NCBI GenBank assembly: GCA_965223545.1
Contig: OZ245006.1
Coordinates: 5,056,001-5,120,000, forward strand
Direction: 5' to 3'
From: Planctomycetota bacterium
Lineage (GTDB): Bacteria; Planctomycetota; UBA1135; UBA2386
DNA length: 64,000 nucleotides
The notes beneath the pieces were generated by a model. That model was given only the letters and a program-made list of their open reading frames with translations, was not told where the DNA came from and ran no database searches. This document shows positions 7,543 to 32,916 of the stretch, piece by piece. Position numbers and translations under genes: made by a program. The first letter of the stretch is position 1. The number at the start of each line of letters is the position of its first letter.

Positions 7543-9432
7543 GCGGAGCGAAGGGTGAGCGCCCGTCAGCTCTTGATCCTGAGGAAGAGGGAGTCACCGT
7601 CTACCCACACGAATTCCTGAAGACCCCCTTGCACTCGCTGTCCTTTCGTCGACTGCCACCGCGCAATACCAACCCACGCAGGTCTACAACATGGAGACCG
7701 AGCCCATTCTCGGCTCGGGAACGCCGAGTACGACCAGCTTGGGGGCTGCGCTCGACGCGGACATCGTCCGAACAGGTCTCACGTCGCCCCGGTTTATCGG
7801 GTTGGCTGCCTTCGCTAGCGGGCTATTCCCATTCACCTGGGATGGGCCGACCACGGCGCCGAATTTTGGGTCAGCTCTGGCGGGGTCCGGGTCGGGCGCG
7901 GTGGGCGTCACCATTCTCCCTCGACAGACGAACGTCGCGCCCGGCTCGCGGCTGACTGGCTTCGCGTACTTGTTTCCCGGCGGCGTGCCCAGGCCAACGC
8001 TCTTCGACGTCTTTATCGGCAGTTCCAACGTGCCTCCGTCAACGGCCAACTCTCGGGGTGCGAACGTGCCGACAACCTCGCTGGATCTCACGGCGGAGTT
8101 GGTTTGGCTCCAAGGTGCCTCAGTCCCATATGTGATCTACTGGGGTGCGAGCCAGTCACCGAGCCAGTTGGTTGCGGCTACGATCGATATGGTGACTGGT
8201 TCCGTAGGCTCGGCGTTCCCGGTGGCCGAGCCGCCCTCAGGCATGGGCACCCACCTTTATCTTGATACTCTTGTCGATGAGGATGGGCGGGCGCGGGCCT
8301 TGATCACTTCCGAACTCAGGACCGGGGGAAGAGACATTCACTTCTGGCCGAACTTCAGCACTCCCGGTGCCTCAACTCAACCATCTGTCCAATTCTTGAC
8401 GGGCCTCTATTCATCGGTTGCCGCGGTCGATGGCACTGTATTGGTTCGCAATGACTCCCTGCCGAACCCTCTATGGGAGCGCTACGGGATGTTCATGCTA
8501 TCGGGCCCCGATGCCGATACCTCGGCGTTTGGCACGACGGTCAATCAGTTCGCCTGGATTCCGCCAGACTACTCTCCCCTTTCGCTGTCTTTGTTGCTCG
8601 ACCCGGTGCTGAACTCCACCGGGACTCCAATGTTCGTGCTCTATCCTAATCGTCAGCATGCTAAGGGAGTTTTTCATTTGACCCACCTGGCCTACCCGGT
8701 CCCAATGGCGAACATGGGGGGTGTCTATCGCGGGAGCTGGGTCGTCCCCGCCTTGGCGCAGGGTGTTTCAGGGTGGTACAGCCAGGCGATCGGCCTCGAC
8801 CCAGTTACGGCTTGGGCGCCCAACGTCGCGGATCTCTGAGTGTTGGCCGGCGGCGAAGGCCCATCGCCTACGACGGCCGGCGGGCGAGGCCGACCACGGC
8901 GCGCACGGTGATCCACAGGCCCGTGGTCCACCAGATTGCGTCGAGCGCGGTCGGCGCCGACGTGTCGACCGAGGCAAGCGTCCCGATGCCGATCGCGCTG
9001 GCGGCGAGCATCCCGTTGCGCATGTAGGCGTAGTGGCGGGAGCCCCAGTGGATGCCGTCGGTGACGAAGCTGACCGCGTTGAGTGGTTGGGCTACGGCCG
9101 CGATCCACCAGGCCGAGGCGAAGACGCCGTGCGCGGCCGCGGGGACGAGCTCGGCCGCGACCCAGTCGGTCGAGGCCCACATCGCGGCGGTGAGCATGGC
9201 TCCGGTGAGCACGCCCCACGCCAGCGAGGTGCGGGCAGCGCGGCGGGCGAGGTCGAGCCGAGCAGCTCCGGCGAAGGCGCCGACCAGCACCTGCGCCGCG
9301 GTGGCGAAGCCGTAACTGTTCCGGCACGCACGTTCTTCGCGCCGCGCCGAACCGGCGCATGAACAGAAACTTCGGCCACCGGGTGTCGGCACCGGCGCCG
9401 GCCACGACGGTGACCGTCCGTAGCTGGCTGGG

Positions 9433-11055
9433 CTACGAGCCCACGAACAACTGACGCACGATGTTGTCGATCGCGTTGTCGGCTTTGGCGATCTGGGCAC
9501 GCCGTTGCCGTCCCAGCATCCAGCCACGCGGAGTCAGCTGACCGACCTGGGAGGCAGGAGTGGTCGAGATCGCGTGAAGCACATCCCGCAGGTAGAGCAG
9601 CGGGCTGATGCCATGCTCTCGACACGACTGGACGAGACTCAAGAGGATGAGTGAAGCTTGGGTGCCGTCCTCGGATCCGAAGAAGAGCCAGTTCTTCTTG
9701 CCGATCACGACTGCACGCAGAGCACGCTCGCAACCGTTGTTCGAGATCTCGCGGATGCGGCCATCGGTCAGGAAGCGCTCGAGAGCAGGCCACTGGTTGA
9801 GCCCGTAGCGAACTCCCTCCATGAGCGGCCCCTTCGGGAGGCTCGGCTGGTCGATGTGCATCTGCTCGAGCCAAGCCTTGAGCGCGTTCGCAATCGGGCG
9901 AGAGTCGCGCTGACGGACCTCGACCAGCTCGTCATCCGTGAAGGGTCGACCATCTTTGCCCTTCTTGGCGACGCTCTCGATCGCGAACAGCTTGCCGATC
10001 CAGCCCAGAGCCTTCTCCGTGGTCGAGTCGCCGAGCTTCCGCGCATTCACGAAGTAGCGACGAAGGTGTGCCCAGCATCCGATGCGCGCGATGCTGGTTG
10101 GATCGAGATCGCTGTAGCAGTCATGGCCATCGCACTGCAACCGACCACCGCGGTCGCCCAAGACCTCTTTGGGGCTGCCGCGATTGCGTGAGTCCGTAGC
10201 GGTGTAGAAAACCCCGGCGTGTTGATCGCGCCACGCCCACACGTGGATCTTTTTCTGTCCGGGGTTTCGGCCGTTGCGCTGGTTGCCGTAGGTGTCGTCC
10301 ACCTGCAGGACGGAGGTGTCGAGGCTCTCGAGAACTTGCTCGACATGGGCATCGAACACGGGCTTCAGGAGCTCGGCACAGCGCATCGCCGAAGTGCATA
10401 GGACGCTACGCGACAGGCTGAGCCCCTCGGCTGCGTACTTCTTCTCCAACCGCGCGTACGGCATGTGGTTGGCAAAGCGGTCGAAGATGATCTGCGCAAG
10501 GAAGCCGGGGCCGAGGATGCTTTTGTCGAGGACTCGGGTGGGGCCCGCGGCGACGACGACGTAGCCCTGACAGGTCGCGCAGGAGTACTTCTTCCTCACG
10601 ATCTGGTGGACGAACGAGAGCTCGATGCGCTCGAGCTCCTGCGAGACCTCTTCGCCGAACTCCCGACGGCCGTTGCCGCAGCAAGGGCACAGCAGGTCCT
10701 CGCCCTCGATCGTGAATACGGAGCGTTGCCGCGGAAGATGCTCTGGGAAGTCCTTGCGTCGCTTGGTGCGCTTGCGCTTGTGCTCGGGGACGGTGATCTC
10801 TTCGGCCTCTTCTTCGGCCGCCTTGGCGTCGGCTCCCGCTTCCTCTACAGCCTCTTGCGCGAACGGCAGCAGCTGTCGCGGGTCGATGTAGCGGCTCTTC
10901 TCCGAGCGGCGACCGAACAGCATGCGCTGAAGGTCGGACATCTGCGACTTCAGCGACGAGATCTGCGTGAGCAGATCCGGGATCAAGGCACGTAGCTGCG
11001 CCTCATCCAGTGCGTCGACGTTGACCGTTTGCTTGCGACCGCCCATCGCGACCAT
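9433..11055 (-). CDS. tnpC: IS66 transposase TnpC
   Basis: LFGRRSEK, CPCCG..CATC zinc finger, QVDDT, CWAHLRRYF and SNNGCERALR motifs. Confidence 0.93.
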   Translation of the reverse strand: MVAMGGRKQTVNVDALDEAQLRALIPDLLTQISSLKSQMSDLQRMLFGRRSEKSRYIDPRQLLPFAQEAVEEAGADAKAAEEEAEEITVPEHKRKRTKRRKDFPEHLPRQRSVFTIEGEDLLCPCCGNGRREFGEEVSQELERIELSFVHQIVRKKYSCATCQGYVVVAAGPTRVLDKSILGPGFLAQIIFDRFANHMPYARLEKKYAAEGLSLSRSVLCTSAMRCAELLKPVFDAHVEQVLESLDTSVLQVDDTYGNQRNGRNPGQKKIHVWAWRDQHAGVFYTATDSRNRGSPKEVLGDRGGRLQCDGHDCYSDLDPTSIARIGCWAHLRRYFVNARKLGDSTTEKALGWIGKLFAIESVAKKGKDGRPFTDDELVEVRQRDSRPIANALKAWLEQMHIDQPSLPKGPLMEGVRYGLNQWPALERFLTDGRIREISNNGCERALRAVVIGKKNWLFFGSEDGTQASLILLSLVQSCREHGISPLLYLRDVLHAISTTPASQVGQLTPRGWMLGRQRRAQIAKADNAIDNIVRQLFVGS

Positions 11056-11416
11056 TGATACGAACAGAGCGCGAGTAATGCCGACGAAACTTGGCGGATT
11101 TCAGATCAATCCCTTCGAGCAACATCACGAGCTGTGCGCGCTCGACTTCGACATGTGTGGCGTCGCCGCTCTTGGGACGCCAACTGTCAAACGTGCCGCG
11201 CTCGAGTCGCTTCATCGAGATCCAGAAACCGTTGCGATCCCAGAACAAGATCTTCACGCGATCGCGACGCCGGTTGAAGAACGCGAAGACGTCGCCATCG
11301 AACGGATCCCGATGAAAGCTGTGCTGGACGATCGCGCTCAGCCCGTCGAACGACTTCCTCATGTCGGTTGGCTCGTTGGCGACGTACACGCGCACGCCCG
11401 CTGGGAAGGCCAGCAT
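11003..11416 (-). CDS. tnpB: IS66 accessory protein TnpB
   Basis: PTDMRKSFDGL, FFNRRRDRVKILFWD and KRLE motifs. Confidence 0.93.
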   Translation of the reverse strand: MLAFPAGVRVYVANEPTDMRKSFDGLSAIVQHSFHRDPFDGDVFAFFNRRRDRVKILFWDRNGFWISMKRLERGTFDSWRPKSGDATHVEVERAQLVMLLEGIDLKSAKFRRHYSRSVRINGRDGRSQANGQRRRTG

Positions 11417-11745
11417 CAGTCGGCCACAGAGTCCAGCAAGCGGTACGCGATGTCTTGAGCAATCGCGCCCTCGAACTCCGCGACGACGCCCGCCGGGAAC
11501 CTGAGCCGCACAAGGCTCGAGCTCTCGCCCTCGTCGTTACTCGTCCGGCCCCGACCATCGCGATCGACGACTCGGACCTCCGCGAACCCAGTGCTCTCCT
11601 CCGATCGCAACCGATGCGACCACCAACTCAGCGTCCCGATCGGGATACCGAACCGCTCCGAGAGCGCACGCAGCGAAAACCCTTCCTGCTCGCGGAGCGC
11701 GAGAACCTGCCGGATCTCACGGCGACGACTTGCTCGCTTCGACAT
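11416..11745 (-). CDS. tnpA: IS66 accessory protein TnpA (HTH)
   Basis: HTH-like SLRALSERFGIPIGTLSWW; position upstream of tnpB inside the IRs. Confidence 0.8.
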   Translation of the reverse strand: MSKRASRRREIRQVLALREQEGFSLRALSERFGIPIGTLSWWSHRLRSEESTGFAEVRVVDRDGRGRTSNDEGESSSLVRLRFPAGVVAEFEGAIAQDIAYRLLDSVAD

Positions 11746-12676
11746 GGCCGCATCGTGGCGAACGACTCGAGCGTTTGCAGACGTGGTTGCCGGAACAGTT
11801 ACGCGAAGCCGTCGAGGGCCAGGGCGGTGAACATCCACACTTGGCGGATTGCGTGGTGGGCAGCGCCGGCGTCGTCGCCGGCCTGCTGGGCGGTGCGCGT
11901 GGTCGCCACCAAGAACACCATCAAGAGGCACGTGCGCAGGATCATGTCGCGGCCGACGACGAGCAGCTGTCCGGCGTCGGCGAGACCGAGGCGGTCCGGG
12001 CGGCCGAGTCGAGCGAAGATGGCGGACAGCGACCACGCGCACGCCAGCCACTGGCTGGCGACCGTTGCCCAGGCGGCGCCGGCGATGCCGAATGCGGGGA
12101 TCGGGCCGAGGCCGGGGATCAACAGCGCGTTGAGGCCGACGTTGACGAGGTTGCTGAGGATCGCGATCCGCAGTGGCGTGCGCACGTCGCGGCAGCCGCG
12201 CAGCGCGCCGCTGGCGGTGAGGGTCAGCAGGATCGCCGGGGCGCCGAGGGCGGTGATGCGCAGGTAGGTCGTGGCGGCGTCGAGGGTCGTGCCGCGTGCC
12301 TCCATCCAGTGCGCGATCGGCCGCGCGGCGAGCATGCCGCACAGGGCGAGCACGGCGCCGCCGATCGCGGCGAGCAGAAGGGCGGTGCCGGTGATCGAGC
12401 GCGCGCGCGCGGCGTCGCCCTCGCCGTCGGCGCGGGCCACTTCGGTCTGTGCGCCGGTGGCGGTGAACTGGAATACCCAGAGGACCGCGGGGAGCACGGT
12501 CGTGCCGACGCCGAGGGCGGCCACCGAGGCGACGCCGAGCGGGGCCACGAAAGCGGTGTCGACGAGGCCTTTGAGCGGCTCGGCGACCAGCGCGGCGGTC
12601 ACCGGCACGGCGAGCCCGATCGTCGTGCGGTGCGGCGCGCGCTCGAACGCGTCGGCGGTGTCGCGCTCGGTGCCGG

Positions 12677-28644: not shown

Positions 28645-29253
28645 ATGGCCTCGCTGACCAAGTACTTCCTGCGTGGCACGCTGGTGCTGATCCCACTCCT
28701 GGTGACCGGCTACGTGATCTGGTTGGTCGCGACCACGATGGGCCCACTGGTCAAGTGGGTGGGTGATGCGGTCGGTGGCCCGGCAGTCAGCGACGTGATG
28801 CAGTACGTGCTCGGCACACTCGTCACGTTGGCTGGAGTCACCCTGCTGGGACGGTTCGCCTCGAACTACCTCGGCGCCAAGCTGATCACCTGGCTCGAGC
28901 AGCTGGTCGAGAAGGTGCCACTGGTCAAGCTGCTGCACGGCTCGGTGCGGGATCTGCTCGGCGCGTTCGTCGGCGACGAGAAGAGCTTCGACCGGCCGGT
29001 GATGGTGCGCCTCGACGGCGGCGCGGCGGTCGTGGGGTTCGTCACCCGCGACGACCTGAGTTTCCTCGGCGCGACCGATCACGTCGCCGTGTACCTGCCG
29101 CAGTCCTACAACTTCGCCGGCAATCTCATCGTCGTGCCCGGCGATCGCGTGCAGAGCCTCGACGCGCCGAGCTCGGCCGTCATGGCGTTTCTGGTGTCAG
29201 GCGGCGTCTCTGCCAAGAAGGAGGACGCCGCCGGCAAGGCGACGGCCTCTTGA
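28645..29253 (+). CDS. DUF502 family membrane protein
   Basis: YFLRG..IPL, KVPLVK, GFVT, VYLPQSYNFAG and VSGG motifs. Confidence 0.88.
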   Translation: MASLTKYFLRGTLVLIPLLVTGYVIWLVATTMGPLVKWVGDAVGGPAVSDVMQYVLGTLVTLAGVTLLGRFASNYLGAKLITWLEQLVEKVPLVKLLHGSVRDLLGAFVGDEKSFDRPVMVRLDGGAAVVGFVTRDDLSFLGATDHVAVYLPQSYNFAGNLIVVPGDRVQSLDAPSSAVMAFLVSGGVSAKKEDAAGKATAS

Positions 29254-29759
29254 GCGTCCGGCGCCTCGAATCGTCGAGCTGCGACAACATTTTCGAGGCG
29301 ACGTCGCTGCCATGGCGACAATGCCGCCGCGCCGGAGGCTCGGAGAGACAGTGCCTCCTGGCTCAGCGCGGCGGCGGATGGGTCGGACCTTCCAAAGCGC
29401 TCCGGCAAGAGCGGCATCCGAGTTTGGTTGCGGCCGTGGCCGCGCTGAGCCTCCGGCGCCTCGAATCTTCGAGCTTCGACAACATTCTCGAGGCGACGTC
29501 GCTGCCATGGCGACAACGCCGCCGCGCCGGAGGCTCGGAGAGACAGTGCCTCCTGGCTCAGCGCGGCGGCGGATGGGTCAGGCCTTCAAAGCCGCTCCGG
29601 AAAAAGCGGCATCCGAGTTTGGTTGCGGCCGTGGCCGCGCTGAGCCTCAGGGTCCGCAAATCTTCGCGCGGCGACAACCTTTCGGAAGGCTCGATGCCGC
29701 TGGAACTTCGACCACGCAGCTCCCGGAGGCTTCCATGAGAGGGGCGATCCCGTCAACAG

Positions 29760-30050
29760 CTCTTTGTCTGTGGATCTGTTCTTCTTGAGAATCTGGGCGC
29801 CTTGGCGCCGCCCTGCGCGACAAGCTTCGGACTCCGCAGGCTTCCATACGCACTCTGATGGCCTCGTCCGAGACCGGTGCACGATGAGATCCGTCCGACC
29901 CGGCGCAGCTTTCTCGATAACGGCCTCGAGGGCCAAGCCTCCGGTCGCTGTCGCCGGGATCGGGCGGTGAGTCTTCAGCAGTGCAGGAGCGGCATCACGC
30001 CAGGTTCCTCCACGGTATTCGGTTGGTTGGGGGTGGGGCGATCATGGTTG
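29760..30050 (-). ncRNA. Putative bridge/seek RNA of the IS110 element (boundaries approximate)
   Basis: Two stem-closed loops containing sequences that match the target flanks and the donor junction. Confidence 0.65.
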
Positions 30051-30052
30051 GG

Positions 30053-31129
30053 TCATACCGCGGTGTGGGCAGCTACGCGGTCGCTGTTGTGGAGTGGGTC
30101 GTAGACCAAGCCATGACGCCACAGCCGATGCAGCAGTAGCGCGAGCTTGCGGGCAACCGCGACCGCCGCGCGTTTCCTCGCGCCGCGGCCGCCGCGGGCG
30201 ATCAGGCGTTGCCCGAAGCGCCGGAGGTCACAGTCCTTGCCGAACGGGCCGAGGATGTAGTGCGCACACTGCACCAGAAGCCGTCTCAGATAGCCGTCGC
30301 CAGCCTTGCTGATCGACAGCTCCGGATTGCTGTCGCCCGACGCGAAGCTCTTTGGGCACAAGCCGAGCCAGGAGCCCACGCGGCGGCTTTCGGCGAATCG
30401 TGTCGGATCCTCGATCGTCAGCACGAACGCGGTCGCTGTGACCGGCCCCACGCCGTTGACTTGCTGCACGACGGCGACCTCGGGGTATCGCTCGCGGCTC
30501 GCCTCGACGAGCGCCTTGTCGAGCTCGTCGATCCGGCGGGACAGGTCGGCGATCAAGTCCAGCAGCGGCTCCGCCGCAGTGAGTAGCAGGACCGGCATGG
30601 ACTCGCGAGCTCGCTTCGGGAACGCCGCGGTCGATGCCGACGGCAGCCGGACGCCGAAGCCCTTCGCCAGGCTCCGGACCTGCTGCACTGCCATCGTCCG
30701 CATCCTCACCAGCAGGTCGCGCGCACGAATGACCGACAGGTCGGCCTGTGCCTGCTCGCTGCGGTGGTGGATCGTGCCGAGCAACTCGGGCATCCCTGCC
30801 TCCAGGCGAGCCAGGGTCTCGGCATCGCGCCGGTCGGTCTTGCGAGGATCCTTGGCGATCAGCTGCACTCGGCGCGGGTCCACGACGTGAACGTCGTAGC
30901 CCTCCGAGCGCAACCGCCGAGACATCCAGGCCGACTGCGAGCCGGCCTCGAGAGCGACTCTGGCGCCCGGGAAGTCGCTCAGCGCCTTCGAGAGCGCTGT
31001 CGGCGTCGTCGGGAAACTGCCCCGCGCAACGACCGTCCGCGACGCGTCCAGTGCGCAGTAGTGGATGTTCCGATCGCCAATGTCGAGACCGATGGTCACG
31101 GGGGAGGTCTGAGCGGTAACTTTGGTCAT
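30053..31129 (-). CDS. IS110 family DEDD recombinase/transposase
   Basis: IGLDIG, ALEAG, KTDRRDA, GVGP and LGLCP..ASG motifs; AAAGGAG RBS upstream of ATG 31129. Confidence 0.93.
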   Translation of the reverse strand: MTKVTAQTSPVTIGLDIGDRNIHYCALDASRTVVARGSFPTTPTALSKALSDFPGARVALEAGSQSAWMSRRLRSEGYDVHVVDPRRVQLIAKDPRKTDRRDAETLARLEAGMPELLGTIHHRSEQAQADLSVIRARDLLVRMRTMAVQQVRSLAKGFGVRLPSASTAAFPKRARESMPVLLLTAAEPLLDLIADLSRRIDELDKALVEASRERYPEVAVVQQVNGVGPVTATAFVLTIEDPTRFAESRRVGSWLGLCPKSFASGDSNPELSISKAGDGYLRRLLVQCAHYILGPFGKDCDLRRFGQRLIARGGRGARKRAAVAVARKLALLLHRLWRHGLVYDPLHNSDRVAAHTAV

Positions 31130-31267
31130 GGGTCGATCTGCTCCTTTGATTTTGCAGCGCCATTGTGTGGCGACTGCGTCGGAGGGATCGACCCTCTCAT
31201 CCCATCTCGAAGACAACACTGGCCTCTGGGGTTTGGTTGCGGCCGTGGCCGCGCTGAGCCCTCCGCC

Positions 31268-32782
31268 TCAGCAGCCAATCGTGAAGTCCAGCGCGTTGCA
31301 GAGCCCGAGCAACGACATTTCGTTGCCGACGACGGCCTGCACGGTGCCGCCCAACCCGAACAGGCCGGTGCTGGCTGGCACGGGGACTCCGATCTGCACC
31401 GGATTGCCGCCGGCCGGAGCCGAAATCGAGAACAACAGCGGGGTGAACGGGTCGATCAGCACTTCGCCGAACGAGACGACCGGGCCGTTGCCGGCGCCAG
31501 TCGTCGCCACCACTGCGGCGAACTGGGCGCGACCAAGACCGGTCGTGTCGATCTGCAGCGGCCAGTCCTGGCCGATCGAGGGCGTCGCGGTGCTGCTGAG
31601 GCAGGTCATGTTCACGCCACTGCCATTGCGCGGCGTCGCCGTGGCCAGCACGAAGCCCGGGGCGCGGGCCAGCTTGATCTCCACTTGCGCGCCGCTCGCG
31701 GTGACGTTGACGCGCACGTCCTGCGTGATGTAGCAGGGGTGGGAGACGCGCAGCGTGTGCGTGCCGGTCGGCAAGAACGCGTGGTAGCGGCCGAAGCGGG
31801 GCTCACTGCGGTTCTGCTCGCCCAGGGTGAACGGGTTCTCGACGTAGCGGATGTCGGCCTGGATCGGCGCGCCCGACGTTGCGTCGGTGACGTGTCCCGA
31901 GACCGGGATCGGCCGCTGAATGAACCAGACCGTGCCCGGCCAGAGCCGCGTCGCCTCGCTCTGCGCGCTGCTGATCGACGGCGACTGCGTCGTGCTGATC
32001 TCGGTCAAGAACGCGTAGTTGCTGTAGTTGCCGAGCTGCCATTGGTAGTGCTCGCCGTTGGAACTGGGCCCGCGGTTGCGGCCGCCGTAGCTGGAGGCGT
32101 TGGACAGCGCGATCGCCTCGGCTTGCAGGTAGGAACCGAGGACGTGTTGGCCGCAGCTGGGCACGTAGCCCCACAAGGTCTCGCGCCCGGAGCTGTGGAA
32201 GTCGAGGACCTTGGTGAAGCGTTGATCCTCCGACCAGGCGACCATGGCTTGCGTCTCCGGCTCGGAGGCGGGTGCCCTACCCTTGATCCCGGTGTTGCAC
32301 CGCGACGACCACAAGAACGGATAGTTGCGGTTGAGATCGATGCCGTTGCCGTTGGTCCGCGAGCGCCAGTAGCCGTCCGGGTTCCACACCGGTGCGACCC
32401 AGATCTCGTTGTCATCGACCAGTCGGGTGATCTCGGGGTCCACGCCGTAGCCGTTGGTGAGCCGGCTGATCGTGTCGAGCGCCACGATTGGAGTGCCGTA
32501 CTCGTTGCCGTGGTGGGCCGAGACGATCATGACCGAGGGCTCGTCCTCCTCCTGTCCGACGTTGTCCGAGATCTTGACCGCGTACAGGCGGTTGCCGCGA
32601 ACGGTCAGCGGCGTGCCGTAGGTCGCGTTCAGATCGAACAGCTGGCAGATCGCGGGGAAGTTGTTGGCCGCGGCGGTCATCTGCTGAACGATCCCGTTGT
32701 AGTCGGGAAAGCCCGACGGCTGCGCGAGAGCCGCGGTGGACAGAGTGGCGGTGACGATGGTGGAGACGCAGAGTTGCTTCAC
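31268..32782 (-). CDS. Secreted M14 zinc carboxypeptidase with C-terminal domain
   Basis: Signal ALA-Q; HHGNE, NPDG, DLNRNY, SEPET and DFHS motifs. Confidence 0.9.
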   Translation of the reverse strand: MKQLCVSTIVTATLSTAALAQPSGFPDYNGIVQQMTAAANNFPAICQLFDLNATYGTPLTVRGNRLYAVKISDNVGQEEDEPSVMIVSAHHGNEYGTPIVALDTISRLTNGYGVDPEITRLVDDNEIWVAPVWNPDGYWRSRTNGNGIDLNRNYPFLWSSRCNTGIKGRAPASEPETQAMVAWSEDQRFTKVLDFHSSGRETLWGYVPSCGQHVLGSYLQAEAIALSNASSYGGRNRGPSSNGEHYQWQLGNYSNYAFLTEISTTQSPSISSAQSEATRLWPGTVWFIQRPIPVSGHVTDATSGAPIQADIRYVENPFTLGEQNRSEPRFGRYHAFLPTGTHTLRVSHPCYITQDVRVNVTASGAQVEIKLARAPGFVLATATPRNGSGVNMTCLSSTATPSIGQDWPLQIDTTGLGRAQFAAVVATTGAGNGPVVSFGEVLIDPFTPLLFSISAPAGGNPVQIGVPVPASTGLFGLGGTVQAVVGNEMSLLGLCNALDFTIGC

Positions 32783-32916
32783 GACGGATTCCTCTGAGCG
32801 AGGCAAGAGGGTGGGGCGCGGGGAGCGTCCGCGCGAGCCCGAATGTAGCGCCCGCGGCTGGGTGGCGCCTCACGCGGGCGCTGCAGACCGAGTACCAACG
32901 CGGTACCAAGCAGGTA

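Follow-up and report, generated by a model that had tools for sequence, protein, structure and literature searches.

Can the insertion specificity of a mobile element be read from the RNA that lies next to its recombinase gene? The question is raised by a locus in the window, by which the whole analysed stretch of 64,000 nucleotides of a Planctomycetota genome is meant. The answer reached here, held at a probability of about 90%, is that the locus contains an insertion sequence of the IS1111 group which is intact, has been mobile recently and moves by RNA-guided recombination, and the predicted guide positions, the ends, the core, the target and the recent spread are all supported by comparison of sequences. 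The core of the original prediction, an intact IS1111-type recombinase followed by an RNA with decodable guides, is thereby supported, with one of the four guides having been misplaced.

The element, its ends and its target repeat

The element spans 29730-31207 and is bounded by CT at 29730-29731 and CT at 31206-31207. It lies within a host repeat, and its parts and flanks are:

29251..29729, plus strand: left part of the host repeat array, with units of ~195 bp at 195-bp spacing and REP/BIME-like palindromes
29730..29731, plus strand: CT core of 2 nt at the right end of the element, which reads AG on the element strand
29732..29751, minus strand: right end, made up of a 3-nt terminal extension and the 17-bp inverted repeat arm 29735-29751
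30053..31129, minus strand: IS110-family recombinase of 358 aa, with PF01548 and PF02371 and with D16, E61, D99, D102 and S264 intact
31184..31207, minus strand: left end, made up of the inverted repeat arm 31184-31200 and a 7-nt extension including the core 31206-31207
31208..31260, plus strand: right part of the host repeat, which starts with the target arm CGAAG (31208-31212)

The 17-bp inverted repeats are subterminal, with 29735-29751 and 31184-31200 complementary at 16 of 17 positions, and outside them lie extensions of 7 nt on the left and 3 nt on the right; IS1111 elements are defined in PMC11187229 by inverted repeats of 7-17 bp that begin 7 nt inside the left end and 3 nt inside the right end. 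Non-coding DNA amounts to ~320 nt downstream of the transposase gene as against ~78 nt upstream. Judged by its sequence, the element has those features of the IS1111 group for which the outcome was clear (ends, inverted repeats and downstream RNA region).

The recombinase scored 230 bits against the NCBIfam model of IS110 RNA-guided transposases (NF033542, cut-off 140), and the five residues of the DEDD/serine active site (D16, E61, D99, D102 and S264) were invariant across 18 of 18 aligned sequences. Named homologs at 60-62% identity were from Planctomycetota assemblies, the best plasmid matches were 32-34% identical and annotated merely as IS110 family, and the alignment with the IS621 protein (E 5e-08) was confined to residues 189-347. 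A search of the openly accessible literature listed no publication on the element or its subfamily and no IS1111 structure. The neighbouring gene (31268-32806, minus strand) encodes an M14 zinc carboxypeptidase, and both the repeat and the element are located just downstream of it.

The genome carries four copies of the element, three whole and one split by an IS66-family element, and over the length of the element these show 100% identity. Each of the four occupies one and the same site of the repeat, in one orientation and with a common left flank, and the four loci differ in the repeat variants around them. The interrupting IS66-family element (C1 about 7065012-7067501), which lies in the recombinase gene of that copy, has ~8 copies in the genome, another of them at about 9309-11803 of the window.

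The flanks and core of the prediction were found as described: the left repeat part terminates in CCGGAGG (29723-29729), followed by CT at either end of the element and by CGAAG. The empty site CCGGAGG-CT-CGAAG that had been reconstructed from them was borne out by the genome itself, where the exact 14-mer occurs 54 times, every time within repeat context, and where 89 of 225 BLAST matches span the joined site. The empty form was also present on one contig of sequencing run X5. Empty sites contain a single CT, so insertion proceeds without target duplication beyond the core. As for the circle junction, itself a reconstruction, 0 copies were found in the assembly and none among the joints listed for the contigs of three runs, contigs being prone to drop rare forms.

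The repeat is dispersed genome-wide in units of ~195-200 bp (313 matches in 147 clusters, ~30 kb in total), and targeting it supplies dozens of landing sites. An origin of the repeat from a REP-associated tyrosine transposase was considered and rejected, with 0 of 14 PF01797 matches lying within 6.8 kb of the repeat motif. The same repeat family also hosts a second, unrelated IS110-family element of 500 aa (L138:510-2012, C1 about 8011750-8013690; NF033542 209 bits) which has a 373-nt non-coding region upstream. Its 11 copies are all at one different site of the repeat, and one of them directly adjoins a copy of the IS1111-group element.

Target guides in the predicted downstream RNA

The predicted RNA and the guides discussed below lie downstream of the recombinase gene, on the element strand:

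29829..29967, minus strand: predicted bridge/seek RNA core of ~140 nt with approximate ends, in which a conserved scaffold carries variable guide slots in 45 homologs
29936..29944, minus strand: long target guide CCGGAGGCU, 7 nt plus core, with a 7/7 match in the window
29921..29935, minus strand: target-loop inner hairpin, in which 29934-29931 pair with 29922-29925 (35-44 of 45 homologs; compensatory pair types occur)
29913..29919, minus strand: short target guide, a 5-nt slot plus core, of which the window matches 3/5 plus core (UCGAG)
29911..29912, minus strand: putative target-loop handshake dinucleotide, AA in the window and AU in most homologs
29883..29890, minus strand: donor guide for the left end, AUCUCAUC, with one G:U wobble and covariation in homologs
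29841..29847, minus strand: donor guide AUGGAAG for the right end plus core, with covariation in homologs
29839..29840, minus strand: putative donor-loop handshake dinucleotide, CC

Homologous loci were fetched in three sets (31 + 80 + 18), four own-genome loci were set aside and the window was added, giving 126 sequences. A transposase match was obtained in 125 of these, and both ends, the inverted repeat and an RNA anchor in 78, 7 of them short-flanked; three with unequal cores were dropped, and the remaining 68 were reduced to 45 non-redundant homologs at 85% RNA identity. In L092, L052 and L023 an extra left-end base shifts the register of the core, and these were excluded from the counts. 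The subfamily is widespread, and the number of matching metagenome stretches was estimated at roughly 13000. The 45 homologs carry 44 distinct targets, and with nearly all targets differing, kinship is an unlikely source of target covariation. For each slot, matches to cognate partners were compared with matches to swapped partners over 10000 shuffles, which ignore kinship; trees were a quick tree and one from FastTree. Chance matches within the window alone were estimated from 5000 dinucleotide shuffles of the downstream region.

The motifs named in the prediction were all present at the coordinates given for them, and they fared very differently by chance. The 9-nt match to the left target plus core arose in only 0.3% of shuffles and AUGGAAG in 2.4%, whereas UCGAG arose in 43% and CCAUC (29861-29857) in 42%; with two 5-mers each in more than 40% of shuffles, it is homologs alone that can decide on matches of this length.

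In the alignment of homologs, the two target guides vary with the flanks of the element that carries them and match both strands of the target, as in bridge/seekRNA systems. The long guide matched on average 4.27/7 positions of its cognate target against 1.89 of swapped ones and the short guide 4.27/5 against 1.42, and in either case 0 of 10000 shuffles were as high. The long match thus kept its assignment, and so did UCGAG, common by chance in the single window, yet in a slot that covaries across all 45 homologs. The short-guide position adjoining the core matches in 45/45. When all flank and end positions were set against all RNA columns, the ten strongest DNA-by-RNA pairs all lay on the two target-guide diagonals, namely 29919-29915, identical to one target arm, and 29942-29938, complementary to the other.

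For 32 of 45 elements no other target scored higher than their own, and for 13 one did, owing partly to slips in the alignment of the long guide and partly to natural mismatches. The window scored 10/12 for its own target and at most 6 for any other. The closest homolog, with a protein 70% identical, has a different target and correspondingly different guides. By the prediction's own standard, a loop left unchanged in homologs whose targets differ would have refuted it; the loops were found to change with the targets. The core is AG in 44 of the 45 homologs and GG in one, with a matching change in the RNA. In that homolog (L057), both of the RNA guides that include the core are altered to match, which amounts to a natural core change.

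Donor guides, putative handshake bases and predicted RNA fold

The donor side also showed a signal in the expected direction. AUGGAAG, predicted as the guide for the donor junction, matches the right end in 45/45 homologs, and the RNA base at 29845 is the same as the base at -3 of the right end in all 45 (37 G/G, 8 A/A), with 7 changes on the tree, so that this assignment was retained. In contrast, CCAUC as the other donor guide turned out to be a chance match: its slot scored 1.44/5 for cognate and 1.47 for swapped ends, 7013 of 10000 shuffles reached that value, and the motif itself is at the slot in 1/45 homologs. Position 29887, instead, tracks left-end base 4 in 39/45 homologs, and since the CCAUC slot carries no signal, the second donor guide is placed at 29890-29883, for which the left-end match is 4.69/6 cognate against 4.06 swapped (0/10000 shuffles).

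The donor signal rests on few events because there is little variation in the ends, of which 2 and 10 distinct sequences occur. Phylogeny-corrected independent pairs were concordant in 4/4 (p 0.125) and ~4.5/6 cases (median p 0.06), in the expected direction and not significant. Furthermore, the homolog filter demanded an RNA anchor containing one donor guide, and the conservation of donor guides is therefore partly by construction.

The RNA likely also carries handshake dinucleotides, as judged from its sequence. The putative target-loop dinucleotide equals left-end base 1 in 36/45 and base 2 in 42/45 homologs, and 3 of 3 elements with an unusual first left-end base show the same base in the RNA. 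For the donor loop, the first handshake base equals the adjoining target base in 25/45 homologs against 14.9 expected, and independent pairs gave no support (1.5/5). Handshake pairs are more numerous after than before strand exchange in 42 of 45 homologs (means 2.64 vs 0.56), a result largely driven by near-constant bases. The window has three such pairs after exchange and none before; IS621 has three after and one before (PMC13626964), and a post-exchange bias of this kind is reported for it (PMC11208158, PMC13626964).

An Rfam search of the RNA region returned 0 matches at E up to 1, and folding the whole downstream region as a single sequence was uninformative (z -0.52). The target loop consists of an internal loop and the inner hairpin, and the stem that closes it pairs 29957-29947 with 29900-29909 and includes compensatory pairs; one of these is A29949-U29907 in the window, where 43/45 homologs have U-A. 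Compensatory changes also uphold the inner hairpin at 29921-29935 as originally drawn. Of the predicted outer stem, however, only the proximal part (29957-29947/29900-29909) was retained, and the distal part (29891-29899/29958-29967) gave no cognate signal (reached in 2206/10000 shuffles), so that the true outer stem probably differs from the version proposed.

In the donor region, which contains the longest invariant RNA stretch (29854-29841), the inner stem pairs 29881-29876 with 29849-29855 and gives little covariation because it is nearly invariant. The 5' segment of the RNA pairs with the segment past the donor guide at -6.8 kcal/mol for cognate against -5.6 kcal/mol for swapped partners; 1 of 10000 shuffles reached the cognate pairing, as compared with 1580/10000 for a control. 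This closure places the donor guides in a multiloop, an arrangement noted for many IS1111 RNAs in PMC11208160. Scanning the linear element for promoters and terminators gave 0 sites, and the candidate for a promoter formed by the joined ends is:

29751..29756, minus strand: putative -35 box TTGACG of a circle-junction promoter, with TTGAC conserved

TTGAC occurs within the final 45 nt in 40/45 homologs (36 of them at 27-28 nt from the end) and in 6/364 control windows. The -10 box that would span the circle junction is poor, matching at 3/6 positions.

Proposed mechanism, competing readings and a duplication in one copy

The target loop comes first and the donor loop second, as in IS621. On the plus strand of the window, each loop also follows an IS621-like order: first a guide identical to the top strand, next an inner hairpin, then a guide complementary to that strand, and last the putative handshake dinucleotide. 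IS621 further shares the DEDD plus serine site, the CT core and a REP-type target (PMC11208160, PMC11208158, PMC13626964). Its protein is distant from that of the window, however, and the window element differs from it in having its RNA downstream rather than upstream, long inverted repeats, a target-donor frame inverted relative to the gene, and donor guides in a multiloop. ISEc11, ISPa11 and ISKpn4 are closer in architecture, with subterminal inverted repeats, 7-/3-nt extensions, RNA downstream of the gene, a top-strand match 5' of the bottom-strand match and a GL-P----SG motif (PMC11187229). The window element, known here from its sequence, differs from these three in target and scaffold, and it has a donor-matching region covarying with both ends, such as is not assigned in the accessible text of PMC11187229. 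Targeting of REPs was already known for IS621 and ISPa11 (PMC11187229). ISPpu9 of Pseudomonas putida is likewise a multi-copy IS110-family element in repetitive extragenic palindromes with a small RNA downstream of the transposase, but it has free-standing copies of the RNA gene (PMC12288879), none of which were found for the present element in its genome. Given that PMC11208160 predicts a bridge RNA for 93% of the catalogued elements of the IS1111 group, and that five members with seekRNA data are covered in the review PMC13604230, this element is a further IS1111 bridge/seekRNA system with decoded specificity, and established knowledge of the family is unchanged.

By analogy with IS621 and ISEc11, the element would leave as a circle, its joined ends would complete a promoter transcribing the gene and the downstream RNA, and the recombinase would bind this RNA. 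The target loop would pair with CCGGAGG-CT-CGA of the host repeat on both strands, and the donor loop likewise with the circle junction on both strands, whereupon the composite DEDD/serine site would cut at the CT core and the strands would be exchanged; the handshake bases, with 0 pairs before and 3 after exchange, would favour insertion. Expression of the RNA and programmability would follow the example of other family members (PMC11187229, PMC11208160).

Three other readings have to be weighed against this. The matches could be chance or relics, with the repeat chosen by the protein or by DNA structure such as palindromes: two of the four matches originally proposed are as common in shuffles as stated above, and the target does lie in a palindrome-rich repeat. 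However, guide slots that follow 44 distinct targets with 0/10000 shuffles as high, and a closest homolog whose different target is matched by different guides, are hard to square with it, and covariation in homologs largely refutes this reading, which is barely credible. It is also quite improbable that the element is genuine and this copy or its RNA is no longer active. Four copies are few next to 54 exact empty sites, there are two short-guide mismatches and one handshake mismatch, and no circle was found in the assembly or among the joints listed for the three contig runs. Against inactivity, the copies show 100% identity at four loci whose surrounding repeat variants differ, the reading frame and catalytic residues are intact, and the RNA stem holds the compensatory pair A29949-U29907.

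The seekRNA model, in which the target loop alone (about 29957-29900) works as the guide, the protein recognises the ends mainly through the inverted repeats and the region that matches the donor plays an accessory role or belongs to a precursor, is the least easily dismissed of these and still unlikely. An 82-nt RNA with target matches sufficed for transposition of ISEc11 (PMC11187229), the element does have long inverted repeats, and the phylogeny-corrected donor tests fell below significance. On the other hand, the longest invariant RNA stretch is in the donor region, and that region follows the right end in 45/45 homologs over 7 changes and the left end in 39/45, which is unexpected of an accessory stretch. 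RNA-guided recombination with both target and donor guides remains the preferred reading, and the element allows a direct test of the point on which seekRNA and bridge RNA differ, namely whether a donor-binding loop is needed in the IS1111 group. Its recombinase is compact, covariation in nature across 44 targets has mapped all four of its guide positions, and its subfamily lies far from the bridge recombinases solved so far, so that a reprogramming test could start from it directly.

In one copy of the element, 183 bp of the right end are duplicated exactly (C1:7063615-7063982), and the junction falls on the CT of the short target guide in that copy's own RNA gene. The join site has a full short-guide match and 1/7 for the long guide. 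Insertion at half matches has been described for IS621 (10.64898/2026.08.31.748434), and the duplication looks like a natural case of it, with assembly error as the alternative. An unbroken contig of run X1 at this locus gives the duplication no support; in run X3, a separate contig ends at it with a depth of 70.5 vs 57.6, near the expected 5:4.

I lean slightly towards a wider interpretation, in which the IS1111-group RNA would be a full four-guide bridge with handshake, of IS621-like geometry inverted relative to the gene, and the 183-bp duplication a half-match self-insertion. If true, the inverted four-guide bridge would explain why guides are reported in reversed order for IS1111 and would argue for one mechanism in both groups, and RNA-guided IS elements would carry an inherent risk of targeting themselves, their RNA gene by design holding half of the target. 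A similar join, at a site with a clear fit to no guide, was seen in one of 70 homolog loci (L024:2357-2408), where 52 of 52 nt repeat the element's own downstream region from an AG to the end of the contig.
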